Assembly (NCBI GenBank): GCA_002419135.1
Contig: DIFM01000027.1
Span: 1 to 55,446, forward strand
Length of the DNA stretch: 55,446 nt
From: Dehalococcoidia bacterium UBA5748
GTDB lineage: Bacteria; Chloroflexota; Dehalococcoidia; Dehalococcoidales; UBA5627
Direction of reading: 5' to 3'
Numbering within the stretch: the stretch's first letter is position 1; the number at the start of each line of letters is the position of its first letter. A program made the translations under genes and the position numbers. Below are positions 1,481 through 55,172 of the stretch, piece by piece. A model generated the notes under the pieces. The model was not told the DNA's origin and searched no databases. It was given only the letters and a program-made list of their open reading frames with translations.

Positions 1481-2590
1481 TTAAAAATCCATTACGAATC
1501 TGCCGTTTTTGTGCAGCAGGTCGCCGTCAACACGGATTTCTCCGCCGTTTCGCAGGTCGCAAATCATATCCCAGTGAATCGCCGATTCATTTTTGCTGCC
1601 GCTTTCCGGATAACCCGCCCCCAGTGCCATATGAAAACTGCCGTTAATTTTCTCATCAAAAAGAATTTCGCCGGTAAACCTGTTGATATTGGGGCTGGTT
1701 CCGATGGCAAACTCGCCAAGTGTGCGCGAGCCGGCATCCGTATCCAGCATTTTAAGCAGGTAATCCTCGTTCTTTTCGGCACTGGCTTTTATAACCTTGC
1801 CGTTTTCAAACCATAACCTTACTCCGGTAACCTCTTTCCCGCCCTCGATGGCCGGATAAGAAAAATAAACATGGCCGTTAACACTGTCTTCAACCGGGCT
1901 GGTAAATACCTCTCCGTCCGGCATATTATAGCGTCCGTCGCAATTTATAAAAGGACGCCCTTCGATACTCAACGTCAGCTCGGTTTCCTCTCCCCTGATG
2001 TAGACGAATTTTTTACCTTCCAGCCAATCTATAATATTTTGCTGGCGTTTCGAGAAACGCTGCCAGTAGCCTACCGGGTCTTCCATGTCGGGTAGACAGG
2101 CTTTATAGACAAAATCTTCATATTCGGAAAGGCTCATTTCAGCATCCTGCGCATAAGCACTGGTGGGAAAAATCGTATAAACCCAGCGAAATTGTCCGTC
2201 GGCGGAACGACGCATCTGCGTTTTCATCAGTTCGGTTCTGGCTTGATGACGAGTTACCATTCGCAACGGCTCCACACTGCTTAGAGCCTTGGTGTTTGAA
2301 GTAGCGCCGATAGCTATGGAAACGTCGTAGTTATCAGTGATTATCTTTTCGGGCTCGTGGATAAACTTCAACTGCTCGTCGGAAGCATACTTGTAGAAGA
2401 CTTCAGCTAATCCTTCCGGCTCTAAAAATACTATCGGATGTCCGCCGGCTTTTAATACCTCGGCATAGACAGCTTTTACCAGCGGTGCAGCCGCATAATC
2501 ACCCCGTATTTTTACCTTGTCACCCTTCTGTACCGTTACAGAGTAATTAACTAAAAGTTCAGCCATTTTTTCTATTCGAATATCTTTCAT
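1481..2590 (-). CDS. Aminopeptidase, M29 (AmpS/PepS/aminopeptidase T) family
   Basis: 369-aa ORF. The N-terminus (EKMAELLVNYSVTVQKGDKVKI) and overall length match thermophilic-type M29 aminopeptidases. Confidence 0.75.
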   Translation of the reverse strand: MKDIRIEKMAELLVNYSVTVQKGDKVKIRGDYAAAPLVKAVYAEVLKAGGHPIVFLEPEGLAEVFYKYASDEQLKFIHEPEKIITDNYDVSIAIGATSNTKALSSVEPLRMVTRHQARTELMKTQMRRSADGQFRWVYTIFPTSAYAQDAEMSLSEYEDFVYKACLPDMEDPVGYWQRFSKRQQNIIDWLEGKKFVYIRGEETELTLSIEGRPFINCDGRYNMPDGEVFTSPVEDSVNGHVYFSYPAIEGGKEVTGVRLWFENGKVIKASAEKNEDYLLKMLDTDAGSRTLGEFAIGTSPNINRFTGEILFDEKINGSFHMALGAGYPESGSKNESAIHWDMICDLRNGGEIRVDGDLLHKNGRFVMDF

Positions 2591-2857
2591 AATCGCACCC
2601 CTAAAATTCTGCTAAAATATTTATATATTCTATACCAGTCCCAGATATAAATGCCACTTGCAATCTGTATAACGAAAGAATACAATATCATCCATTCTGA
2701 TAATTTCAGTTGCGGACAAACCTATTTTACATTTAGAAAAAAACATCTATAATTAAATTATCAGGTATTGAATAATAAAATATTTAATCGAAAAAAATAT
2801 AAAAGTCGAAGGTACAGTTATGTACCCAAAAGGTAAAAAGGAGTATGGAACAAACAG

Positions 2858-4192
2858 TTGAAGACAAACTTAAAAACAATTAGTAGCAGTAATTCTTTGG
2901 ATACCCTCTCGGATAGCTACAACTGCGAAGGTGATGACGAACCACCCAGTAGCAGTGACGACTCAGAGCCTCCCCAATGCATCCCCGCATCTAACAGAAT
3001 CAAACTTTTCGGGACAGTTCCCGATAAAGATTGGAACGATTGGAAGTGGCAATTCCGCAACCGTGTAACCTCAGTTGAGCAGCTGTCCAAGTATGCCCCG
3101 CTGTCCGCTACAAGGTATGCCGAAATAAACACAGTAACTAAGACTTATCCGTTGTCTATTACTCCTTATTATCTTTCACTTATGGATTTAAATAATCCGC
3201 AAGACCCGGTTGCCATGCAGGCTATTCCTTCCATCGAAGAAATAACCGTCAGATATACCGGTGTTGAAGACCCCCTTGAAGAAGAAAGGGATTCGGTCGT
3301 GCCCGGACTGGTACACAGATACCCTGATAGAGTACTGATGGTACTCACCGACATCTGCCCGATGCTTTGCCGTCATTGCACACGCAAACGTGAATGGAAA
3401 AACGGAGACTGGGTACGCACACCGGACGATATAGAGAAGATGTTGAACTACATCCGCGGCAATACAAACATCAGAGACGTCATTTTATCCGGCGGTGACT
3501 GTCTGACCCTTTCAAACAAACATCTGGCAAATGTCATTCACAGTTTAAGACAAATCAATCATGTAGAAATCATTCGTATCGGCACTCGCTTCCCGGTAGT
3601 CCTGCCGCAGCGCATCGACAGCGAGTTCTGCGATATACTTTCGGAATATGGCCCTATATGGTTAAACACCCACTTCAATACCGTAAACGAGATAACCCCG
3701 GAATCGGCTGCCGCTGTCGACCGCATTATTCGTGCCGGCGTTCCGGTAAATAACCAGAGTGTGTTGATGCGTGGTATTAACGACACCGTTGAAAAGCAGA
3801 CCAGGTTATGCCAGGGATTGTTAAAAATTAAAGTGCGCCCTTATTACCTCTTCCAGTGCGATGAGGTACAGGGAACCGACCACCTGCGTACCTCCATAGA
3901 TACCGGTATCAAGATTATCGAAGGCATGCGCGGTTTTACTTCCGGGCTGGCTATCCCCAACTTTGCTGTAGACCTGCCTCAAGGAGGAGGTAAGATAACA
4001 CTTCAACCGAATTACATTGTTGCCAGAAGTGAAAAGGAAATCCTGTTTTCAAATTACCGGGGCCGTATGATTAACTGTAACAATGTATCGGCAGACCAAC
4101 CGGTACAAACTTACCCTGCTCCCGAAGCAATACCAGACAAACTCATTTATAATTTGCCAGAGGTAATGGATGCGGATCGGGTTATCATTTGA
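2858..4192 (+). CDS. kamA: KamA-family radical-SAM/PLP amino acid 2,3-aminomutase (lysine-type substrate pocket)
   Basis: CPMLCRHC radical-SAM CxxxCxxC motif, the DWNDWKWQFRNR N-terminal motif, and the GGGK PLP-lysine motif. Asp is retained in FQCD and in AVDLPQGGGK. TTG start, preceded by GGAG at 2840-2843. Confidence 0.85.
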   Translation: MKTNLKTISSSNSLDTLSDSYNCEGDDEPPSSSDDSEPPQCIPASNRIKLFGTVPDKDWNDWKWQFRNRVTSVEQLSKYAPLSATRYAEINTVTKTYPLSITPYYLSLMDLNNPQDPVAMQAIPSIEEITVRYTGVEDPLEEERDSVVPGLVHRYPDRVLMVLTDICPMLCRHCTRKREWKNGDWVRTPDDIEKMLNYIRGNTNIRDVILSGGDCLTLSNKHLANVIHSLRQINHVEIIRIGTRFPVVLPQRIDSEFCDILSEYGPIWLNTHFNTVNEITPESAAAVDRIIRAGVPVNNQSVLMRGINDTVEKQTRLCQGLLKIKVRPYYLFQCDEVQGTDHLRTSIDTGIKIIEGMRGFTSGLAIPNFAVDLPQGGGKITLQPNYIVARSEKEILFSNYRGRMINCNNVSADQPVQTYPAPEAIPDKLIYNLPEVMDADRVII

Positions 4193-5174
4193 CCTCAAAC
4201 CGGATAAACCCCCGGTTAATGAATATATAGACGACTCCATGGAGGAATACGACTCCATGGAGACCGTCAATCTTATTAAATCCTCTATCGAAGCCAACGG
4301 ACATCCGGTAACACTGCTTGGCGGAGGAAAAGCTTTCCTCGACAATATACGCAGGGAAAAAGTGGATTTCGTATTCAATATCGCCGAGGGGCAGGGAAAC
4401 TACCGCAGCCGCGAATCGCAGGTTCCGGCTATTTTAGAGATGCTGGATATACCCTATTGCGGTTCGGACCCGTTATGCCTCGGCATATGCCTCGATAAAG
4501 AATTGACCAAGAAAATAGTCGCCATGGAAGGGGTAGTGACACCCAAATGGCAAATGATTTCAGATATCAAACAGTTACACTCGATTGACTGGAAAGGTTT
4601 CAAATTTCCGCTGATGATAAAACCGGCGCACGAGGGTTCCAGCAAGGGCGTCAGGCTGTCATCGGTGGTAATGAATGTGGAAGAGCTGGAAACGGAAGCC
4701 AAACGTCAGTTCGAAGGCTATAATCAAGCTCTTATGGTAGAGGAATTTATCGGCGGAGATGAGATAACCATAGGCATTACCGGAAATGAACCTGTTGGAG
4801 TGCTGGCGATAATGCGAGTGCTTCCGAGGAAAAAGACGGAGCATTTTATTTATTCCATCGAGGTCAAAAGGGATTATCTGAAGCTGGTGGATTATGATTG
4901 CCCGCCGAAACTTGACGAGCAGGTTATTAAAAAGCTGGAAGATGTCAGCCTCAAGATATTCAAAATACTGGGATGCCGCGATTTTGCCCGCATTGATTTC
5001 AGACTTGATAACGATGGAAACCCCTATTTTCTGGAGATAAACCCGCTGCCCGGACTGGGTAACCACAGCGACCTGGTACTTATGGCTTATATGATGGGTA
5101 TTTCGCATGAAGAATTGATAAATAAGATACTGACAGCAGCCTTAAAAAGGTATTCGACATGCCTGCCACAATAG
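4170..5174 (+). CDS. ATP-grasp ligase, D-alanine--D-alanine ligase-like (copy 1)
   Basis: 334 aa with Ddl-like organisation: a pre-ATP-grasp domain, then PLMIKPAHEGSSKGV and a C-terminal FLEINPLPG motif. It overlaps the kamA stop by 23 nt. Confidence 0.8.
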   Translation: MRIGLSFDLKPDKPPVNEYIDDSMEEYDSMETVNLIKSSIEANGHPVTLLGGGKAFLDNIRREKVDFVFNIAEGQGNYRSRESQVPAILEMLDIPYCGSDPLCLGICLDKELTKKIVAMEGVVTPKWQMISDIKQLHSIDWKGFKFPLMIKPAHEGSSKGVRLSSVVMNVEELETEAKRQFEGYNQALMVEEFIGGDEITIGITGNEPVGVLAIMRVLPRKKTEHFIYSIEVKRDYLKLVDYDCPPKLDEQVIKKLEDVSLKIFKILGCRDFARIDFRLDNDGNPYFLEINPLPGLGNHSDLVLMAYMMGISHEELINKILTAALKRYSTCLPQ

Positions 5175-6166
5175 CAGTTATTTACAATCAACCCGCCGCA
5201 AGCCCCTACTGCGATAGAAACGAGCAGGCTGCCGAAGACGGCGTTTTGATAGAAACGGCTGCCGTGGAAAAAGCGCTTAACTCGCTGGGATACTTGACTT
5301 CCAAAATCCCTTTGACATTGCCGCTGGAGCAGGCTTTCAGTAAACTGTCGCGGATAACAGCCGACATTGTTTTTAACCTTTTTGAGGGATTTAGCGGCTT
5401 TCCCGAAACGGAAGCCCTGATAGTAAAACAACTGGAATCGCTTAAATTGCGTTATACCGGTTCTCCGTCGACAGCACTGAAACTGGCTCTGGATAAGGCA
5501 GCTACCAAAACATTATTACAACAGGAAGGCATTCGTACCCCCGCTTTCCAACTGCTGGACGAAGCAACGCTCTGTGATTTTAAACTTAATTTCCCCTGTA
5601 TCGTCAAGCCAAATGCCGAGGATGCCAGCCACAGCTTGAATGTTAAAAGCGTAGTCTATGATTACGATTCATTAAAGAAAATGGTTTCTGAAATCAGTGA
5701 GATGTACGGGGAAAAAGCGCTGGTGGAAGAATATATCGACGGACGCGAATTCAATATGACGGTAATGGGTAATGACATTCCGACCACATTACCGATTTCT
5801 GAAATATGTTTTTCATTACCGGAGGATACACCAAAAATACTCAGCTATGAAGCCAAGTGGGAAACCGAAAGCATCTATTACAAAGGGACACTCCCGCATT
5901 GCCCGGCAGATTTGGAGCCCGATACCGATAGAAAAATCATCGAGGCGGGACTAAAAACCTATACCCTTACCGGCTGCTCGGGATATGCCAGAATAGATAT
6001 GAGAATGGATGAACATGGAAATATGTATGTTTTGGAGGTTAATCCCAACCCCGATATTTCCCCCGATGCCGGAGCCGCCATTCAAGCAGCAGCATCCGGC
6101 ATGAGTTATAATGACTTTATACAGAACATTATGCAACTGGCTATGGAGAGGGACTTTGGTTATTAA
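5159..6166 (+). CDS. ATP-grasp ligase, D-alanine--D-alanine ligase-like (copy 2)
   Basis: 335 aa with CIVKPNAEDASHSL and VLEVNPNPD ATP-grasp motifs. It is a divergent paralogue of the upstream gene and overlaps it by 16 nt. Confidence 0.8.
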   Translation: MPATIAVIYNQPAASPYCDRNEQAAEDGVLIETAAVEKALNSLGYLTSKIPLTLPLEQAFSKLSRITADIVFNLFEGFSGFPETEALIVKQLESLKLRYTGSPSTALKLALDKAATKTLLQQEGIRTPAFQLLDEATLCDFKLNFPCIVKPNAEDASHSLNVKSVVYDYDSLKKMVSEISEMYGEKALVEEYIDGREFNMTVMGNDIPTTLPISEICFSLPEDTPKILSYEAKWETESIYYKGTLPHCPADLEPDTDRKIIEAGLKTYTLTGCSGYARIDMRMDEHGNMYVLEVNPNPDISPDAGAAIQAAASGMSYNDFIQNIMQLAMERDFGY

Positions 6167-6638
6167 GATACGCAAACTGAAAAAGGAAGATAAACCGGCT
6201 TTAATGGATATTCTTCATAACACCCCCGAGTTCACAGCGGATGAGGTAACCATAGCCGAAGAGGTTATCGACGGCTCGCTGGATAATCCCGGTAAATCGG
6301 GCTATTTCTCACTGGCTGCCGAGAATGATGAAGGAGTTTTTACCGGCTTTATCAGCTACGGACCGGTACCGATGACTCAATATGCCTGGGATATTTACTG
6401 GCTGGCAGTCAGGCGCGAATTTCAGGGACACGGCGTAGGAGCCGCTTTACTGAAAGCCGCCGAAGAAAATATAGTACAAGCCGGCGGCAGAATGGCATTC
6501 ATTGAAACTTCCGGTAAAGCGCAATACGATAAAACGCGCCGTTTCTACCTTACCAACGATTATAAGGAAATCTGCGACCTCCCCGATTTCTACGCCCCGG
6601 GTGATAACAAAGTTATATATCAAAAGATTCTGGGGTAA
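6156..6638 (+). CDS. GNAT-family N-acetyltransferase
   Basis: Acetyl-CoA binding motif (REFQGHGVGAALLKAAE). The track ORF starts at 6111 inside the upstream gene. A TTG at 6156 gives MVIKIRKLKKED and an 11-nt overlap, but the start remains uncertain. Confidence 0.75.
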   Translation: MVIKIRKLKKEDKPALMDILHNTPEFTADEVTIAEEVIDGSLDNPGKSGYFSLAAENDEGVFTGFISYGPVPMTQYAWDIYWLAVRREFQGHGVGAALLKAAEENIVQAGGRMAFIETSGKAQYDKTRRFYLTNDYKEICDLPDFYAPGDNKVIYQKILG

Positions 6639-6904
6639 ATAACCTGCAAACTATTTGAATATTTATTATTGATTGAAAATATAATAATCATAGCATGTAC
6701 CAATGATAAGATATCAATTCATTCGTTGCGATTAAAAAGCGTAACAAGACTTAATAATGGACTTTAATTCTATAACGAATGTGAATAAACCTATTATTTT
6801 ACTAACCTTACTGAAGTTATTTCGTTATACTATTAAAATACCCTGTCGCATGTGATATGATATAAGGGAAAGGATAATAACTAAATCCGGTTAACGGTGG
6901 ATTT

Positions 6905-8227
6905 ATGCCGAATTTCAGCCATATATTAAAAAAAATATGCGAAAGACTAAGTAAACACGCTCAAAAAACACCTTTTTGGGTCATTATCCATATTGTACTT
7001 TTCCTTGGTGTTTTCCTGCTATGGACTCATGTATTTTGGGATTATCTAGGCCCCAGCCCCGGAGCGGTCGAAAAAAACATTGTTCTCTTGATAATGGACG
7101 GGCAAATTCCCTATGTCGATTTCGAATGTGAATATCCGCCGGTGGCTTTACTCCTTTTCATAATACCGGGGTTGTTTTTTAGGGCATTACCGGAATATTA
7201 CATTGCCTTCACCGTAGAAATGCTGCTTTTCGATTTACTGGCTGTCTTCTTAATTGCCTTCATAGCTAAAAGAATTAACATTTCAAAAGTTAAAGCCCTA
7301 ATCTCATATACCCTTTTAATTGCCATTGCCGCCGGTCCGATAGTAACCCATCGTTACGACCTGGCGCCGGCCGTTATGACGCTGGCTGCAGTGGCTGCCT
7401 TTCTGGCAGGTAAAAATAAGACCGCCTGGGGAGTGCTGGCACTGGGGGTAATGGCAAAGATTTTTCCGATCGTTGTAGCTCCGCTTTTCGTAATCTGGCT
7501 ACTAATAAAGGGCCAATATATGCGGCTTTTTAAAGGTATCGCCGCTTTTACAGGAGTTGTTTTGTTGACAATAATTCCCTGGCTTATTATGGATGCCGGC
7601 TCTTTGAGTTCATTCCTTACCTATCATATGGATAGAGGATTACATGCCGAGAGCACTTACGGTTCCTTTATTATATTGGGGCAACACTTCGGATGGACCA
7701 GTGTGGAATGGGATTTCAGCTTCGGCTCGTTTAATATCACATCCGGGCTGGCGGATAATCTGGCAGATGCTTCCTTCTATATTATGGGACTCGCTTTAAT
7801 ATTTGCGTATGCACTGTTTACCTATCAACTCCGCAAGCAGGAAATTACTAAATTAGGCACAGACGATACACAGATTGCGCAGGAAACCCTGCTTGTTCGC
7901 TATGTTGTAATCTCGGTACTGGCATTCCTGCTCTTCAATAAGGTGTTTTCAGCACAGTATATGGCATGGTTCTGCCCGTTGATACCGCTACTTAACATAC
8001 GCTTTAAAAACCTCATTGTTGCACTGCTGCTGATTGCCGGAATATTTACGATATATATCTACCCCTTCAATTATTTAGAGTTCGAATATTACGAGAGCCT
8101 CCCGGTTCTGCTGATGGCAAGCCGCAACCTGCTGCTTATTATCGTTTTTCTACTGGTATTTTGGGGCAAAAAACCACGAGAAAAGAACATACAGGAAAGT
8201 AGTGCGAATATTGTTGTTCCGACTTAG
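6905..8227 (+). CDS. Polytopic membrane protein, GT-C-like (DUF2029/GT87-type) glycosyltransferase candidate
   Basis: 440 aa with about 10 or more predicted TM helices and an early loop (DFECEYPPVALL) like polyprenyl-phosphate-sugar-dependent transferases. The family assignment is from memory only. Confidence 0.5.
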   Translation: MPNFSHILKKICERLSKHAQKTPFWVIIHIVLFLGVFLLWTHVFWDYLGPSPGAVEKNIVLLIMDGQIPYVDFECEYPPVALLLFIIPGLFFRALPEYYIAFTVEMLLFDLLAVFLIAFIAKRINISKVKALISYTLLIAIAAGPIVTHRYDLAPAVMTLAAVAAFLAGKNKTAWGVLALGVMAKIFPIVVAPLFVIWLLIKGQYMRLFKGIAAFTGVVLLTIIPWLIMDAGSLSSFLTYHMDRGLHAESTYGSFIILGQHFGWTSVEWDFSFGSFNITSGLADNLADASFYIMGLALIFAYALFTYQLRKQEITKLGTDDTQIAQETLLVRYVVISVLAFLLFNKVFSAQYMAWFCPLIPLLNIRFKNLIVALLLIAGIFTIYIYPFNYLEFEYYESLPVLLMASRNLLLIIVFLLVFWGKKPREKNIQESSANIVVPT

Positions 8228-8252
8228 AAAACGGTTTTTTTTACGGGATTGA

Positions 8253-8960
8253 ATGCTTATGAAATGTTTATTTTTAGCCAGCGGTTTCGGCACCCGCCTG
8301 TATCCATTAACCCAAAAGACAGCTAAATGTTTGCTACCTTATAAAGGCAAACCGGTTATCAGCCACATTGTAGAAAAAATACCGGACGGAATCGATATTT
8401 CTGTTACCGTTAACCGCAAATTCGCCTCGCAGTTTGAAGATTGGCAAAATAAACTCGACAGACCTGTTGATTTATGGGTAGAACCGGTTGATAACGAACA
8501 GCAGATGCTTGGGGCTATCGGTTCGCTGAATTACTGGATTAAAGGAAATAACATTGATGATAACCTGCTGATAATTGCCGGCGATAACTATTTCAGCAGT
8601 GACCTTTCGGGATTTCTATCCGCTTTCGATTTAAAAGATACAATAATCGCCCTATATGACGTCGGCAATAAAGAGGAAGCACGGCAGTTCGGTAGTGTCA
8701 GGTTAGAAGGTACTAAAGTAATTGAACTGACAGAAAAGTCTGCAAATCCGCAGTCCGGCCTAGTATCTACTGCCTGCTACGCTTTCCCATCGCGCATTAT
8801 TCCCCTGCTTGATGACTATTGTAAAAATGTTAAGAGGGATAACCTGGGGAGTTTCATAAGCCATCTTGTAAAAATAGACTCCGTGCAGGGTTACATTCTT
8901 GACGGTTTATGGTTTGATATCGGCAGCGCCTGGCAAAAAATATCCGATATCGACGAATAG
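8253..8960 (+). CDS. Sugar-phosphate nucleotidyltransferase (NTP_transferase family)
   Basis: N-terminal LASGFGTRLYPLT (GxGTRLxPLT) signature and a 235-aa single-domain size. The start could be 8253 or 8259. Confidence 0.75.
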   Translation: MLMKCLFLASGFGTRLYPLTQKTAKCLLPYKGKPVISHIVEKIPDGIDISVTVNRKFASQFEDWQNKLDRPVDLWVEPVDNEQQMLGAIGSLNYWIKGNNIDDNLLIIAGDNYFSSDLSGFLSAFDLKDTIIALYDVGNKEEARQFGSVRLEGTKVIELTEKSANPQSGLVSTACYAFPSRIIPLLDDYCKNVKRDNLGSFISHLVKIDSVQGYILDGLWFDIGSAWQKISDIDE

Positions 8961-25198: not shown

Positions 25199-26185
25199 CT
25201 AAGCGGCTTTTGCCTCTTCTTCGGCAATGCTTCCCACCGAAATGACATAAGAATTGACGGCTTCACCGGCCGGCACGTCGAACTTGAATTTGAACTGCTT
25301 GCTCGCCCCCGGTTCGATATCTCTTATATAAATTACCCTGGTGGCGATTTTTTCGTCCTTGACGTCCTTAAAAAGAGTAACTACGGCGGCATCCGCTTTA
25401 CCGTCACTGATATTTTTCAGCACGCCGGAAATCTCTACGTCGCCGTTGACCGGCTTCATATCATGACTTTTAAGCTGCACCTTCTCGAAATCGGTGGTAA
25501 TTGCCTTGCGAACAGAAACCTTGTACGTCCGGAATGCTTTCGCTTCGGGTTTTTCGGGTGTAATGTTGAAAGTGCAAATGCTTTGCGGCTTGAATTCGAG
25601 TTCCCTGTGGCAGACGGTATCTAAAAGAGTGCCTTCCCCGTCGTAGAAGTTGGCTTCCAGAACGGCGGTAGCTAACGTCTTCTCACAGATATTCTTGATT
25701 TCCATCTCAAGTGAGCGTTTGACGCCAGCACACTCATCGGCTTCGAGTATACGGTGGCTTAATACTTCAATTTTGCTGCTGCCTATGGCTTCAGGGTCGG
25801 GCGTAAGGACTGTTTTTACCACGCTTACGGTATAGCTTCTGATGTCAGCTTCCGGTTTGGAGTATGAAATGTTGAAGCTGCTTATGCCATCCTTATCAAA
25901 ATCCTTAAAACAGTCCTCGATAGTATCGACAATATTGCCGGCGGCATCATATAAAACGACGCTGAAAACCGCCTTGCCGATCGCCTTGCCGGCGTTATTT
26001 TTAAGGTTAAGCACCACTCCGCTGCCTTTTGCCTCATCCCCTTCTTTTATGAGCAGATTATGGCTGATAATTTCAAGGTGCCGGTTACCGGAAACTGTGG
26101 GTTCGGGCGGAGCACAAGGCTGAACAGCTTCGTCAGCCGTTTCTCCGGTTGAAACTTCTTCTTTTATTTCTTCGTTCTCAGACAA
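25199..26185 (-). CDS. Repeat protein with three FxLYD-like beta-sandwich modules (paralogue A)
   Basis: 328 aa. There are three modules of roughly 95 aa, each starting (L/I/V)E(I/V)xSH and containing a VVLYDAAGN or ANFYDGEGT type motif. Acidic N-terminus, no signal peptide. TTG start 8 nt after GGGAGGA. Confidence 0.7.
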   Translation of the reverse strand: MSENEEIKEEVSTGETADEAVQPCAPPEPTVSGNRHLEIISHNLLIKEGDEAKGSGVVLNLKNNAGKAIGKAVFSVVLYDAAGNIVDTIEDCFKDFDKDGISSFNISYSKPEADIRSYTVSVVKTVLTPDPEAIGSSKIEVLSHRILEADECAGVKRSLEMEIKNICEKTLATAVLEANFYDGEGTLLDTVCHRELEFKPQSICTFNITPEKPEAKAFRTYKVSVRKAITTDFEKVQLKSHDMKPVNGDVEISGVLKNISDGKADAAVVTLFKDVKDEKIATRVIYIRDIEPGASKQFKFKFDVPAGEAVNSYVISVGSIAEEEAKAA

Positions 26186-26264
26186 TCCAGTATCCTCCCG
26201 TGTATATTTTAATCTATTCGGAACAGGTTATCTTATAATACCCGTTTTCGAATTATTGTTTATT

Positions 26265-27347
26265 TTAAGCTGCGGGGACTGCCTCGGCTTCTGTCAGTTC
26301 ACCTATATCGATATCGCGTTTTTTAACCGTCAGTCCCTCGGGGCATGTGAAATCCAGCGCAAATATTTGTACGGTACCGGGAGCGATATCTCTCAACTCC
26401 AGGGTTCGTACGCCGATGGGTTCTTCGTTGGCATCCAGATATGTTACCACTACTACGGCGTCGGATTTGACGCTGCTGACGTTCTTTACCAGTCCGCTCA
26501 CTTCTTCGCGCCCTTCCGGCAGCCTCTTGACTTCATTGCGGCGCAGCTGTACTTTTTCCAGCTCGGCGGTTACCGTTTTAATCAGCTTGATGTTATAGCT
26601 CCTGATGATGTCATCTTTGACGCTCGTGGTCTGAATTAAAAAGGCGCGGCTGGTATTGCGCTGGATATCGGTTTCAATGTGTTTTAATGTGGATATGTAA
26701 TTGCCCGCGGCGTCGAACAGGTCGATGGCAAATATGGCGGAGGCGATACTTTCGCCGCATACATTTCTTACTGCGAGTTCTATGCCCCTTTTAATGGTCG
26801 TAATGCCGACATCCGGGGCTCCGGTACCCTGAAAACTGTGCCTTAAAATGACCAGCCTCTGGTCGCCTTCAGCTTCCGGGACCGGCGTGACAACCATTTC
26901 TTTTATATGTACATCGTAGCTTACTATATCGACTTTGTCAGCTTTAGCGGTCATAATTCTGAGGCTATAGGTCTTTTCAGCTTCAAAATCATTTATAGTG
27001 CGTTCGATTGTGTCGATGACATTACCTTTAACATCGAAAAGTATTGCCTCGAATACCAGCTTTCCGATGCTGGCTCCGGCATTATTTTTGAAAGTGAAGG
27101 ATACACCCTTGCCTATCCCATCCACGGACGCTTTTTTGAGTATAAGCGAATGAGACAGGATTTCGACTTTTTCATTGCCGCTGACAACGGGGTCGGGCGC
27201 CTTGCGCGCCATTTCGAACAGTTTTTCGGCAGAAGGCAAACCTTCCCCGCTGGTTTGGTCAAAATTTTTCAGCAGGGTATCAAGGTCTTCTTCGTTCTGC
27301 CGGGGTGGTGTGGGGTTAACTTCCTTAACATCTTCTTTTTCGGACAA
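26265..27347 (-). CDS. Repeat protein with three FxLYD-like modules (paralogue B)
   Basis: 360 aa with motifs AILFDVKGN, IDLFDAAGN and VTYLDANEE. Conserved N-terminal peptide EDLDTLLKNFDQTSGEGLPSAEKLFEMARKAP. TTG start after GGGAGGA. Confidence 0.7.
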   Translation of the reverse strand: MSEKEDVKEVNPTPPRQNEEDLDTLLKNFDQTSGEGLPSAEKLFEMARKAPDPVVSGNEKVEILSHSLILKKASVDGIGKGVSFTFKNNAGASIGKLVFEAILFDVKGNVIDTIERTINDFEAEKTYSLRIMTAKADKVDIVSYDVHIKEMVVTPVPEAEGDQRLVILRHSFQGTGAPDVGITTIKRGIELAVRNVCGESIASAIFAIDLFDAAGNYISTLKHIETDIQRNTSRAFLIQTTSVKDDIIRSYNIKLIKTVTAELEKVQLRRNEVKRLPEGREEVSGLVKNVSSVKSDAVVVVTYLDANEEPIGVRTLELRDIAPGTVQIFALDFTCPEGLTVKKRDIDIGELTEAEAVPAA

Positions 27348-27411
27348 CTCAATCCTCCCGATAGAATATTTTATAAATCAAATTGGATATTAACCAAATA
27401 TATTAATAATG

Positions 27412-28140
27412 CTAGGCCGTCATTTCAGCCGTTTCGCCGATGTCTATGGTATAGGTTTTTACCTTTTCTCCGGTCGGCGGGCGGAAAAGAAGGCTGAAAT
27501 TCTTTACCGAACCCGGCTCGATATCTTTTACAGGTAAGACCACAGTACCCGGTTTTTCTTTTTTGGTATCCAGAAAAGTAACCGCTATCGAGGCATCGGT
27601 TTTAATGCCGGATACATTTTTTATCATACCGGAAACGTTTACGTCCCCGTTTGGCAGGATTTTCCTTTCATCCCCCGTAGCTACAGCAACAGGAGTGACG
27701 GCTATGTTGGTGATTTTTACCTCATAGCTTTTAACATCAGCGTTTTCGGCAGAGGTGACTATGCGTAAAATACGAGTTTTATCGCATTGAAAATCGGTTA
27801 CCGTTTTTTCAACGGTGTCTATGACATATCCCTTGGCATCGAACATAAGGGTTTGCAGTGTAAGTTTGCCGATAGCGGCAGAGGCGATGTTTTTTATCTC
27901 CAGATAAACGCCCTTCCCCGGGCTTCCCTCACCGCTTTTAGGCAGGACTTTATGCGACACTATTTCAACCTGCTTGTTGCCGTTGGCTACCGGTTCCGGT
28001 GCTTTGCGTGCCATTTCAGCCAGTTTTTCGGCAGAAGGCAATCCCTCCCCGCTGGTTTCGTTAAAATTTTTCAGCAGGGCATCAAGGTCTTCAGTAATAT
28101 TTGCAGGCCGGATATCCTGAATATTATCTTTTTCAGTCAC
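27412..28140 (-). CDS. Repeat protein with two FxLYD-like modules (paralogue C)
   Basis: 242 aa with motifs TLMFDAKGY and VTFLDTKKE. It has the same N-terminal peptide (EDLDALLKNFNETSGEGLPSAEKLAEMARKAP) but lacks the middle module of A and B. GTG start after AAGGGGA. Confidence 0.7.
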   Translation of the reverse strand: MTEKDNIQDIRPANITEDLDALLKNFNETSGEGLPSAEKLAEMARKAPEPVANGNKQVEIVSHKVLPKSGEGSPGKGVYLEIKNIASAAIGKLTLQTLMFDAKGYVIDTVEKTVTDFQCDKTRILRIVTSAENADVKSYEVKITNIAVTPVAVATGDERKILPNGDVNVSGMIKNVSGIKTDASIAVTFLDTKKEKPGTVVLPVKDIEPGSVKNFSLLFRPPTGEKVKTYTIDIGETAEMTA

Positions 28141-28830: not shown

Positions 28831-29185
28831 GGGGACGCAAGGTTTCGACAGTAAAAGTTAGTTACTGGATTGCAGGTTGAGGTTGTCGCAGCCCTCATTA
28901 AAAAGGCGGCAAAAACATAAATGGCGAACCTGAAATGGTTCTCGCTGGCTAAAAACAGCTAGCGCATCCAACCTTACCCCACCCCGGTGGGTAGGGATTG
29001 GGTGTCGAAATGTCGGGGTGCCGTTATCCGAATGCCGATACGGATAGCGAAAGACTTATCGGCTGGCTTGATTGAACTGAGTTGGCAGAGGTCAATCGGG
29101 CAAGATTAAAATGCCGACTAAACCTGTAGCATATTCAGGGCAGCTTTTATTGGACGGGGAGTTCGATTCTCCCCCGTCTCCACCA
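28831..29185 (+). ncRNA. ssrA: tmRNA (SsrA)
   Basis: The 5' GGGGACGCAAGGTTTCGAC pairs with the 3' tRNA-like end GGACGGGGAGTTCGATTCTCCCCCGTCTCCACCA. The internal tag ORF GGC GAA CCT GAA ATG GTT CTC GCT GGC TAA (28923-28952) encodes GEPEMVLAG. Confidence 0.9.
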
Positions 29186-37735: not shown

Positions 37736-38719
37736 ATGAAGGTACACGAAGAACCAATCGAAATAGAAAATCTGACCAGGCTGAATGAATATGGCCCGGA
37801 TGACCTGTTTATCTGTTGCGCCAGTTTTGAAGACAGGTGTCTGCAGGCAGCCGCCAAAGCCGGCCCCAGTTATCGTGTACGCTTCAGCATCATCTTTGTA
37901 ATCGAAGAACCTTTCTATCAGCAGGTTGTCGAAACCAATATGTTGAAACTGCAAGCCGACTTGAGCAGAAGGACTTCAGAAGGGGTATTCGTTATCCGCT
38001 GTCAGCGAGATAATCCTATCGAAGGAATCAGTCAGTTGAAAAATATCTGGAATCGCTGCCGCCCCAAAGATTCCGATGATTCCTATATTACATTCGATAT
38101 AAGCGGTTTTACCAAGATTTATCTGCTTGAACTGCTGTATTTTCTGGTGGCAGAGCAGAATCTGGGTATCCCGCGCATTATTCACACCACGCAAAGTTAT
38201 TCTCCCACCAAACTTACACGCGGAGTGGAGCAAATTTCTACTGTACATAACTTCTTCGGTACTGTCTCATTCGACAAACAGACGATTCTGGTATTATTTT
38301 TGGGTTTCGAACCGGAACGCTCGCTTACGGTATGGAAGCATTTTAACCCGGTAAGAACGATTGCACTCATAACCAATCCTCCGCGCGGTAACAGCGAAGA
38401 GTATCTGGAATATGCCAAGAATAATAATTCTTTCCTGCTTTCTCAGGCAGGTGTGGAATTAAGGGACGTACCTGCCGATGACCCGCATTCGGCAAGAGAC
38501 GTGCTTGAAGAAATATACCATGAGATTCGGGATTCTTTTAATATGGTAATAGGGCCTTTCGGTACTAAATCACAAACGGTAGGCATTTTTCTTTTCTGCC
38601 TGGAGCACCCTAAGGCTCAGGTAGTTTATTCGTTCCCGGTAAACTATACCAAGTCGTATCTGAAACGGAAGCCGGGTAAAACGCTTATTTTGCCGCTTGC
38701 TCCAATTGTTAAAAGCTGA
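37736..38719 (+). CDS. Hypothetical protein with an internal duplication of a Csa3/CARF-like Rossmann module
   Basis: 327 aa. The two halves align: LFICCASFEDRC...DISGFTKIYLLELL against ILVLFLGFEPERS...IGPFGTKSQTVGIFLF. No effector, HTH or TM domain is visible. Confidence 0.6.
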   Translation: MKVHEEPIEIENLTRLNEYGPDDLFICCASFEDRCLQAAAKAGPSYRVRFSIIFVIEEPFYQQVVETNMLKLQADLSRRTSEGVFVIRCQRDNPIEGISQLKNIWNRCRPKDSDDSYITFDISGFTKIYLLELLYFLVAEQNLGIPRIIHTTQSYSPTKLTRGVEQISTVHNFFGTVSFDKQTILVLFLGFEPERSLTVWKHFNPVRTIALITNPPRGNSEEYLEYAKNNNSFLLSQAGVELRDVPADDPHSARDVLEEIYHEIRDSFNMVIGPFGTKSQTVGIFLFCLEHPKAQVVYSFPVNYTKSYLKRKPGKTLILPLAPIVKS

Positions 38720-51239: not shown

Positions 51240-52440
<1,201 letters not shown>

Positions 52441-52465
52441 AGTCCGGAAAGGATTATCTAACCGC

Positions 52466-52981
52466 ATGAGAGACTACGATGAAATCTACGGTGAAACCAT
52501 ACCCTTCAAATTTATGTACTATATTATCTTGGCTGAAGGGGCGACCGGCATACTATTTCTGGTATTTTTCTTCCTGCAGTCTTCCGGCAAATTCATACCC
52601 GATGCGGATGCTTCGGCTATTTTCTGGCTGATAATGGCTCTTGTCATGTTCGCAGTAACGGCTTTCCTGACAACGCTGACCAAGCTGGATATCAGCGTTA
52701 CGCAGGACAGGTTGAAGGCTTCGTTCGGCTTAATAAAATACGAAACCCCTCTTACAAATATCGCTGATATTTATTCAGACGATAGAGCAGGTATTACATA
52801 CGGCGGTTGGGGAGTACGCGTGGCAAGATTAAAACAGGGAATGACGCTGGCATATTCCACATTCGGATATAAAAGAGTGGTCGTCGAGCTTAAAACGGGT
52901 AAATACAAACTGTTCGTGTTTTCGGCATCCAATCCGGAAGAGTTTATAAGTGTTATTAAAAACCGGATGAAGCGTTTTTAA
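52466..52981 (+). CDS. Membrane protein with a PH-like C-terminal domain, unknown function
   Basis: Two N-terminal helices followed by a beta-rich domain of about 90 aa. RBS GGAAAGGA. Confidence 0.45.
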   Translation: MRDYDEIYGETIPFKFMYYIILAEGATGILFLVFFFLQSSGKFIPDADASAIFWLIMALVMFAVTAFLTTLTKLDISVTQDRLKASFGLIKYETPLTNIADIYSDDRAGITYGGWGVRVARLKQGMTLAYSTFGYKRVVVELKTGKYKLFVFSASNPEEFISVIKNRMKRF

Positions 52982-54488: not shown

Positions 54489-54561
54489 TACAAGCGTAGC
54501 AACCGGCCGCTTTTTTTGACATCTCAACTTATTAAGGTTTATACTGTAAAAGTGGTGTTGA

Positions 54562-54636
<75 letters not shown>

Positions 54637-54695
54637 AAAATCAGCTTCGAAATACACCAAAAACATCCCCAGAACTTTCCAATAGTGAACATAAA

Positions 54696-55172
54696 GTGTT
54701 CACAAAAGACCAGCAACTGTTCACAAGCCAGCTCTTATCTGCCTTCTTAAAAAGTAGAGCCAATGGTTTATCCCCAAGAATAATCCTTGAATATGAATGG
54801 CGGTTAAAACGCTTCATAGGCTATCCTATTACTCCTGATGGTATTAAAAGCTTCTTGGATAACCTCAGTTGTTCTAATGGTAAATGGAATTACTTCCAGT
54901 GTGTAAGAGCACTGAGTAATTGGTTATTCAAGAATGGTTATACTAAGGACAATGCTATAACACTTGTAGAAGCCCCAAAACGGCAAAAGAAGCTACTTCC
55001 AGCCATAACCGAATCACAATATCATACATTACTAAATCAATGTCCTGAAAGGGATAGAGCTATTATCTCTCTTCTTTGGCATAGTGGTAAAAACCAGCTT
55101 CCGGGAACACTTCATGGAATATTACTACTGTTTCCGGATCATCAGACAGCGTCTGTTTATGGCAACCTATAA
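54696..55172 (+). pseudogene. Truncated tyrosine recombinase/integrase (N-terminal SAM-like domain only)
   Basis: LLSAFLKSRANGLSPRIILEYEWRLKRF...ERDRAIISLLWHSG matches the integrase core-binding domain up to the start of the catalytic domain. The sequence then diverges (KNQLPG...) and stops, so no R..HxxR..Y catalytic residues are present. It lies directly 3' of a tRNA. Confidence 0.6.

Follow-up and report, generated by a model that had tools for sequence, protein, structure and literature searches.

Which metabolite is made by a gene set that joins a radical aminomutase to two peptide ligase-like enzymes and an acetyltransferase? This question is raised by a locus of the Dehalococcoidia bacterium UBA5748 (Chloroflexota; Dehalococcoidales), and we addressed it by analyzing a stretch of 55,446 nucleotides (nt), referred to here as the window, which comprises positions 1 to 55,446 of contig DIFM01000027.1 in assembly GCA_002419135.1. 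By open reading frame (ORF) and translation analysis, positions 2858-6638 of the forward strand carry four intact, co-oriented and overlapping genes, as follows.

2858-4192, + strand: KamA-family radical S-adenosylmethionine (SAM)/pyridoxal phosphate (PLP) aminomutase, predicted L-lysine 2,3-aminomutase (TTG start, 444 amino acids, aa)
4170-5174, + strand: ATP-grasp ligase A, with a fold like that of D-alanine-D-alanine ligase (Ddl) (ATG start, 334 aa)
5159-6166, + strand: ATP-grasp ligase B, Ddl-like fold (ATG start, 335 aa)
6156-6638, + strand: GNAT N-acetyltransferase (TTG 6156 start, 160 aa; ORF open from 6111)

Neighboring genes share 23 nt, 16 nt and, with the GNAT start at TTG 6156, 11 nt. 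An initial annotation of this DNA had described the overlapping genes and their AT-rich surroundings, and both were fully reproduced here, with a GC content of 0.34 and 0.32 in the flanks versus 0.44-0.49 within the genes. We propose that the operon constitutes a short pathway from L-lysine to a small cytoplasmic N-acetylated beta-lysine di- or tri-amide, a reading to which we give about an even chance. The enzyme families and the first step are known; what is new is their conserved, uncharacterized combination.

The conservation of the cassette was examined by scanning one genome per species, which gave at least 547 stretches encoding a relative of ligase B, and 80 of these loci were kept. 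Combined with loci from other look-ups, they made up 88 de-duplicated loci. The order KamA-ligase A-ligase B-GNAT on one strand was complete in 76 of the 88, and 8 more were cut by contig ends. The remaining four comprised an apparent ligase B-GNAT fusion (L027), a contig-truncated locus with a possible fusion of the same kind (L085), a frameshifted assembly (L091), and a Syntrophales locus (L076, 5907-9708) in which a short, non-orthologous KamA comes after ligase A, ligase B and the GNAT. For each of the four window proteins, the closest relatives were found in Dehalococcoidales metagenome-assembled genomes. When the sequence of the GNAT structure 2R7H was used as the query, the same cassette was recovered in Desulfovibrio mangrovi, an Oleidesulfovibrio-like contig, a Planctomycetota genome, and three further contigs; the D. 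mangrovi and Oleidesulfovibrio-like clusters each have a sigma-54 activator upstream. The cassette occurs in hundreds of genomes of anaerobes and spans at least three phyla, namely Chloroflexota (Dehalococcoidia), Desulfobacterota (Desulfovibrio/Oleidesulfovibrio) and Planctomycetota. Proteins from the distant lineages are 30-44% identical to those of the window, with the orthology of A-type and B-type ligases preserved. In most of the approximately 90 related loci, adjacent genes are projected to overlap, and both ligase genes are always present in the cluster where the locus sequence suffices. These observations show that the aminomutase is co-inherited, and probably co-transcribed, with two ligases of Ddl fold that appear catalytically intact and with the GNAT. 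The initial annotation had regarded the four genes as one functional unit, and their shared order in three phyla bears this out. According to the record titles, the cassette occurs in peat, aquifers, soils, lakes, digesters and marine sites. In one distant cluster, the aminomutase and ligase A genes are separated by a gene for a small protein with a CxxCxxCC domain and a faint match to PF03692 (L090:4671-5195).

The aminomutase and its predicted substrate

The aminomutase contains the Radical_SAM and LAM_C domains (Pfam), and we placed it by its scores against curated hidden Markov models (NCBIfam equivalog models), using the Clostridium subterminale lysine 2,3-aminomutase (PDB 2A5H) as the reference structure. 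It passed the KamA family model TIGR00238 (340 bits vs a cut-off of 199) and failed the narrower models. The best equivalog score was obtained with the AblA model TIGR03820 (450.6 bits vs 525.4), and lower scores were given by the models for glutamate 2,3-aminomutase (TIGR04368; 432 bits vs 650), arginine 2,3-aminomutase (388 bits vs 600) and EpmB (TIGR03821; 233 bits vs 369), the last being the lowest among the KamA-family models. The AblA cut-off was likewise missed by the cluster aminomutases of D. mangrovi (461 bits) and Syntrophales (385 bits).

The window enzyme is 51% identical to 2A5H and has the motifs CPMLCRHC, FQCD and AVDLPQGGGK. Its residues C167/C171/C174, R176, D335, D372 and K379 align with C125/C129/C132, R134, D293, D330 and K337 of 2A5H, and all of these are kept in 75 of 75 cluster-linked orthologues; the radical-SAM cluster, the PLP lysine and the two Asp residues named in the initial annotation are therefore all in place. 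The short KamA of the Syntrophales locus (383 aa), although only 38% identical to the window aminomutase, also keeps both Asp residues. In the Clostridium enzyme, the epsilon-ammonium group of lysine is bound by D293 and D330, and its carboxylate by Arg134. Glutamate 2,3-aminomutase reportedly has Lys and Asn at the two Asp positions, and this pair was not found in the window aminomutase, which has Asp at both. Because the counterparts of D293 and D330 are kept, it is well supported that the predicted substrate is lysine-like and the product beta-lysine, in agreement with the initial annotation. The first 46 residues (2858-2995) form an N-terminal extension, rich in Ser, Asp, Glu and Pro, to which nothing in the aligned part of 2A5H corresponds; such extensions have a median length of 52 aa in the orthologues (range 4-137).

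Enzymes of the KamA family also open lysine fermentation and the beta-lysylation of translation elongation factor P (EF-P), and the operon could in principle belong to catabolism or protein modification of this kind. However, no Pfam family of 5,6-aminomutase, 3,5-diaminohexanoate dehydrogenase or 3-keto-5-aminohexanoate cleavage enzyme was present in the scanned window ORFs or the related-locus genes, and no lysine-fermentation gene was found in the cluster, in the scanned window ORFs or among the recurrent neighbors of the approximately 90 loci. Similarly, the Pfam families of EpmA and EF-P were absent from the scanned window ORFs and the family lists of the related loci, and the genes with Pfam annotation in the 55-kb window include neither efp nor epmA. 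The aminomutase itself, with its LAM_C domain and its low score against the EpmB model, is not EpmB-like. We consider this role the least probable of those weighed here.

The paired ATP-grasp ligases and the acetyltransferase

Both ligases match Dala_Dala_lig_C of Pfam (7e-40 for A and 7e-29 for B), share 31% identity with each other, and are 29-30% identical to Escherichia coli DdlB. Their sequence matches in PDB are all Ddl or Van ligases, but neither reached any of the NCBIfam cut-offs for Ddl, Van or archaeal Ddl; the highest scores with Ddl models were 188 bits for ligase A and 160 bits for ligase B, versus a cut-off of 243. An AlphaFold2 model of ligase B (mean confidence score, pLDDT, of 92) gave template modeling (TM) scores of 0.73-0.80 to Ddl structures when normalized by the query, and the top 50 Foldseek matches in PDB were all Ddl or related D-Ala:D-Lac or D-Ala:D-Ser ligases. 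The model confirms a Ddl-like fold, and it adds nothing on the substrate.

For the substrate site, E. coli DdlB, the sequence of which is identical to 1IOV/2DLN, served as the reference in an alignment of 84 A-type and 88 B-type orthologues. Both window ligases keep the ATP-, Mg- and catalysis-related residues K97, K144, E180, E187, K215, R255, D257, E270 and N272. These are invariant in 84 of 84 A-type orthologues and also in the 88 B-type orthologues, except for D257 (85/88) and E270 (86/88). Since all of these residues are kept, both ligases should be active. In the subsites for D-Ala, however, each family has its own fixed substitutions. The ligase A family has Glu for H63 (84/84), Arg for Y216 (80/84) and Asp for L282 (84/84), while E15 is kept in 79 of 84 and S150 and S281 are kept. 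In the ligase B family, H63 is replaced by Glu, S150 by Ala, Y216 by Trp and L282 by Gly, each in 88 of 88, G276 is replaced by Asp in 83 of 88, and the residue aligned with E15 is other than Glu in all 88. With these paralogue-specific substitutions, the two ligases are Ddl-fold enzymes whose substrate sites differ from each other and are conserved and more acidic. Thus, the pair resembles DdlB (2DLN/1IOV) and the Van ligases in its three-domain ATP-grasp fold and in its ATP, Mg and catalytic residues, but differs in its low identity, in the missed cut-offs and in the replaced D-Ala site. The set of D-Ala-binding residues (E15/H63/S150/Y216/S281/L282) is incomplete in both enzymes, which agrees with the divergence from Ddl noticed in the initial annotation.

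This evidence also bears on a role in the cell envelope, in which stem peptides of a murein-like or pseudomurein-like kind would be the substrates of true or variant D-Ala-D-Ala ligases. Both sequence and structure match the Ddl fold best, and in the lineage of the window a GT87-like membrane glycosyltransferase gene and a sugar-nucleotidyltransferase gene lie just downstream. On the other hand, all of the cut-offs for this class were missed, and the E15/S150/Y216 triad, H63 and L282 are replaced. The Pfam-annotated genes in the 55-kb window include no mur gene, and the ligases stand as an A/B pair beside an aminomutase rather than in a mur/ftsQ setting. The synteny with the downstream glycosyltransferase is confined to close relatives, and Desulfovibrio, which carries the same cassette, has ordinary murein. 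A cell-envelope role therefore seems highly improbable to us.

The GNAT matches Acetyltransf_1 of Pfam (9e-10; 39 bits vs a cut-off of 20.7), and its acetyl-CoA loop (Q/R-x-x-G-x-G/A) is normal, reading QGHGVGA. Like the family matches of the aminomutase and the two ligases, this one lies far above what chance would give. At E <= 0.001 the GNAT matched four NCBIfam families weakly, with RimI the best at 28 bits versus a cut-off of 86, and none of these four is a model for a beta-lysine acetyltransferase. The sole strong relative in PDB was 2R7H (1e-25; 5e-71 in a profile search; approximately 37% identity), and the other PDB matches to the profile were generic small-molecule acetyltransferases. 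The PDB title of 2R7H is "putative D-alanine N-acetyltransferase of GNAT family", and the protein is presumably a structural-genomics target from Desulfovibrio G20. A protein 99% identical to it is encoded in a KamA-ligase A-ligase B-GNAT cluster (L087), and it appears that the name of 2R7H derives from the neighboring Ddl-like genes. The association of the GNAT with ligase B is especially close, as natural ligase B-GNAT fusion proteins of 492-504 aa occur in other Chloroflexi (P0299, P0327, P0340 and L027:7001-8464).

An aminomutase and a GNAT together recall the methanogen ablA-ablB pathway to N-epsilon-acetyl-beta-lysine (Pfluger et al. 2003; summary in PMC1224877), and the operon could be read as a pathway of this type. 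Its known logic is aminomutase plus GNAT (PMC1224877), and the cassette shares with it a KamA-family, predicted lysine 2,3-aminomutase that is co-transcribed with a GNAT, scores best with AblA and keeps the lysine-binding Asp pair. However, two ATP-grasp ligase genes separate the GNAT from the aminomutase. These genes are never missing where the sequence suffices, they overlap their neighbors, and ligase B is fused to the GNAT in several genomes. The AblA score lies below the cut-off (451 vs 525 bits), and the GNAT belongs to a different short family (160 aa), with 2R7H its sole strong relative and no beta-lysine acetyltransferase model among its four NCBIfam families. In addition, cassette loci frequently include a deacetylase partner. 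Thus, an ordinary abl-type pathway is very unlikely.

A proposed pathway and its product

The deacetylase partner is a gene of approximately 590 codons with a histone-deacetylase domain. In 26 loci it belongs to the cluster or adjoins it, and in Planctomycetota it lies within the cluster. Most copies have an additional N-terminal GNAT-like domain. Examples are the following.

L049:8547-10325: deacetylase accessory gene
L086:9629-11386: deacetylase accessory gene
L088:7265-9004: deacetylase accessory gene
L090:7211-9004: deacetylase accessory gene

The best matches of the deacetylase domain are acetylpolyamine amidohydrolases (6PHR, 5e-72; also 3Q9B), from which the accessory gene, itself absent from the window, differs by its GNAT-like domain. 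Acetylpolyamine amidohydrolases deacetylate terminal amines on flexible aliphatic chains. Because the cluster often has an amidohydrolase-like gene as its fifth member, acetylation by the cassette may be reversible or transient, and the same partner suggests, by analogy, a removable acetyl group on an epsilon-type amine.

Taken together, these features are consistent with the following pathway. The KamA-family enzyme would convert L-lysine to beta-lysine (3,6-diaminohexanoate), and ligases A and B would each form one amide bond through an acyl-phosphate intermediate, with beta-lysine as the probable shared substrate. From the residue patterns, ligase A would couple an amino-acid donor with a cationic amino-acid acceptor, for example beta-lysine, since E15 and S150 (donor ammonium) and S281 (acceptor carboxylate) are kept and an invariant Asp stands beside S281. 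Ligase B, by the same kind of pattern, would take an N-blocked (acetylated) intermediate as the acyl donor, because E15 and S150 are lost and the enzyme is fused to the GNAT in some genomes. The GNAT would acetylate, with acetyl-CoA, a free amine of a beta-lysine unit, most likely the terminal epsilon-type amine. In many other genomes, the amidohydrolase-like enzyme encoded in the cluster may then remove the acetyl group, serving either turnover or the use of acetyl as a transient protecting group. ATP-dependent amide ligation combined with acetylation had been put forward in the initial annotation, and the intact, non-Ddl ligases and the conserved gene order lend support to it; the product named here is a prediction from sequence. 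Most likely, this product serves strict anaerobes as a small-molecule solute of the cytoplasm or as a stress metabolite, which is the weakest part of the explanation, and a role as an osmolyte is plausible.

Several points weigh against this reading. The product is a prediction from protein sequences, and the residue-based order of steps depends on an alignment to DdlB at approximately 29-30% identity in which the region of E15 aligns poorly. The occurrence of the cassette in peat, aquifers, soils, lakes and digesters would misfit a solute that is needed only at high salt. A scan of 2400-7000 against Rfam at E <= 1, which covers the operon and its leader, matched no leader RNA and no riboswitch, salt-sensing or other, and a salt-linked regulator was likewise not seen. 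Furthermore, the accessory deacetylase and two other recurrent neighbors of the cassette, a winged-helix regulator and MarC, were searched for in the 55-kb window and were absent.

The main competing explanation is a polyamine-like product, in which the ligases would join beta-lysine to itself or to a diamine or polyamine, yielding a polycationic oligo-amide, and the GNAT and its amidohydrolase-like partner would act as a homeostatic pair. For polyamines, SpeG/SSAT and acetylpolyamine amidohydrolase form such a pair of acetylation and deacetylation, and it is the acetylpolyamine amidohydrolases that the deacetylase domain of the accessory gene resembles most. The additional invariant acidic residues of the two substrate sites (H63 to Glu in both ligases, L282 to Asp in A, G276 to Asp in B) also speak for this reading, and the non-saline habitats and wide spread in Dehalococcoidia suit a housekeeping metabolite. 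However, no polyamine gene is consistently linked to the cassette, the acceptor-carboxylate Ser of DdlB is kept in ligase A, which suggests an amino-acid acceptor, and we know of no small Ddl-type enzyme that polymerizes its substrate. We therefore consider a polyamine-like product unlikely. A broader and tentative proposal, possible but rather doubtful in our view, is that the product represents a novel class of beta-lysine oligo-amides, either a tri-unit pseudopeptide or an acetylation-tuned polyamine analogue, and serves Dehalococcoidia and further strict anaerobes as a core housekeeping metabolite rather than as a salt-specific osmolyte.

The acetylated beta-lysine amide that we favor has a functional parallel in acetylated-dipeptide solutes. 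N-Acetylglutaminylglutamine amide is reportedly made by Ngg, a bifunctional GNAT/ATP-grasp enzyme, together with AsnO. Like Ngg/AsnO, the cassette combines an ATP-grasp former of peptide bonds with a GNAT, sometimes in one polypeptide, and would lead to an N-acetylated small peptide; unlike Ngg/AsnO, its ATP-grasp enzymes are of the Ddl type and present in two copies, it has no amidotransferase, and a beta-amino acid is made within the operon, so the likeness is a resemblance and not membership. N-acetylglutaminylglutamine amide is described as a solute in PMC1224877. By analogy, the cassette may work as an extended abl pathway with the GNAT/ATP-grasp logic of such solutes. It failed the membership tests for AblA/AblB, the glutamate aminomutase Eam, EpmB, Ddl and lysine fermentation. 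No efp, epmA or lysine-degradation genes were found in the scanned window ORFs, and the two ligase genes set the cassette apart from the ablA-ablB arrangement, in line with the difference in context that the initial annotation had recognized. A search of full-text literature, with many subscription journals outside its coverage, found no description of the KamA-ligase A-ligase B-GNAT gene set; the matches concerned ablA/ablB, Na+ riboswitches and unrelated natural products. The earlier statement that the operon matches no characterized pathway consequently stands.

A four-gene pathway kept in hundreds of Dehalococcoidia species likely matters for their physiology. These bacteria, which have small genomes and are difficult to cultivate, abound in sediments, aquifers, peat and digesters. 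If true, the proposal would extend the Ddl-type ATP-grasp ligases to beta-amino-acid substrates, which is of interest for peptide-ligase biocatalysis. The hypothesis is directly testable, with the cassette present in cultured Desulfovibrio/Oleidesulfovibrio and a crystal structure at hand for the GNAT (2R7H); genetic tools exist for these bacteria.

Gene starts, leader and surroundings

The GNAT start is likely TTG 6156, because the orthologues (151-186 aa) begin at the equivalent residue, the match to 2R7H opens ten residues downstream of this codon, and a GGAG lies 7 nt upstream. For the aminomutase, TTG 2858 is the earliest start codon past the in-frame stop; close relatives have GTG in its place, and the upstream AAGGAG is conserved. 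A protein of 431 aa (P0003) is identical to the window aminomutase over 97% of its length and may represent a gene call from TTG 2897. The noncoding features around the operon are listed here.

2591-2857, + strand: AT-rich leader/promoter region separating the aminomutase gene from the divergent M29 aminopeptidase gene (GC approximately 0.34)
2726-2753, + strand: sigma-70-like promoter candidate (TTTACA, 16 nt, TATAAT; 11 of 12 consensus matches)
6639-6904, + strand: AT-rich spacer 3' of the operon (GC approximately 0.32)

The promoter candidate lies in a block conserved in most of five close relatives, and the number of sigma-70-like sites in the leader region was not above that in shuffled controls. 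Although the background is AT-rich, close Dehalococcoidales relatives share conserved blocks within 2640-2760, among them AAATGCCACTTGCAA and ATACAATATCATCCATTC, which may serve the operon or the divergent M29 gene as operators or promoter elements. The spacer 3' of the operon (6639-6904) showed no terminator-like hairpin.

Across the related loci, further recurrent neighbors are genes for a winged-helix regulator, divergently oriented and present in 47 loci, for MFS transporters (16 loci) and for the MarC membrane protein (14 loci). In the window, the operon is flanked by the divergent M29 aminopeptidase gene and by genes for the GT87-like membrane protein and a sugar-phosphate nucleotidyltransferase; the latter two, at 6905-8960 on the 3' side, are found there only in the lineage of the window. 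We rejected the M29 aminopeptidase, GT87 and nucleotidyltransferase genes as members of the system, since their linkage is seen only in close relatives. One relative has a PemK/MazE toxin-antitoxin pair between the GT87-like and nucleotidyltransferase genes (L001:13298-13881).

The rest of the window is ordinary chromosome, with genes for Rnf, NiFe hydrogenase and hyp, SmpB/tmRNA, GroEL, TsaD, TilS and tRNAs. The ORFs at 25199-28140 (- strand), 37736-38719, 51245-52981 and 54516-55172 (all + strand) had no Pfam match, and the last overlaps a predicted tRNA-Met (54562-54636) and may not be a gene. The tmRNA gene (28831-29185) adjoins smpB, and its predicted tag, GEPEMVLAG, lacks the usual ALAA-type end, which may reflect a mis-call of the tag frame. 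Between 9474 and 24571, an ORF for a Trm112-like zinc-ribbon protein is followed by the genes for Rnf subunits C, D, G, E and A and then by the NiFe hydrogenase set, which consists of the small and large subunits, cytochrome b, a maturation protease, hypF, hypD, hypE and a hypB-like gene.

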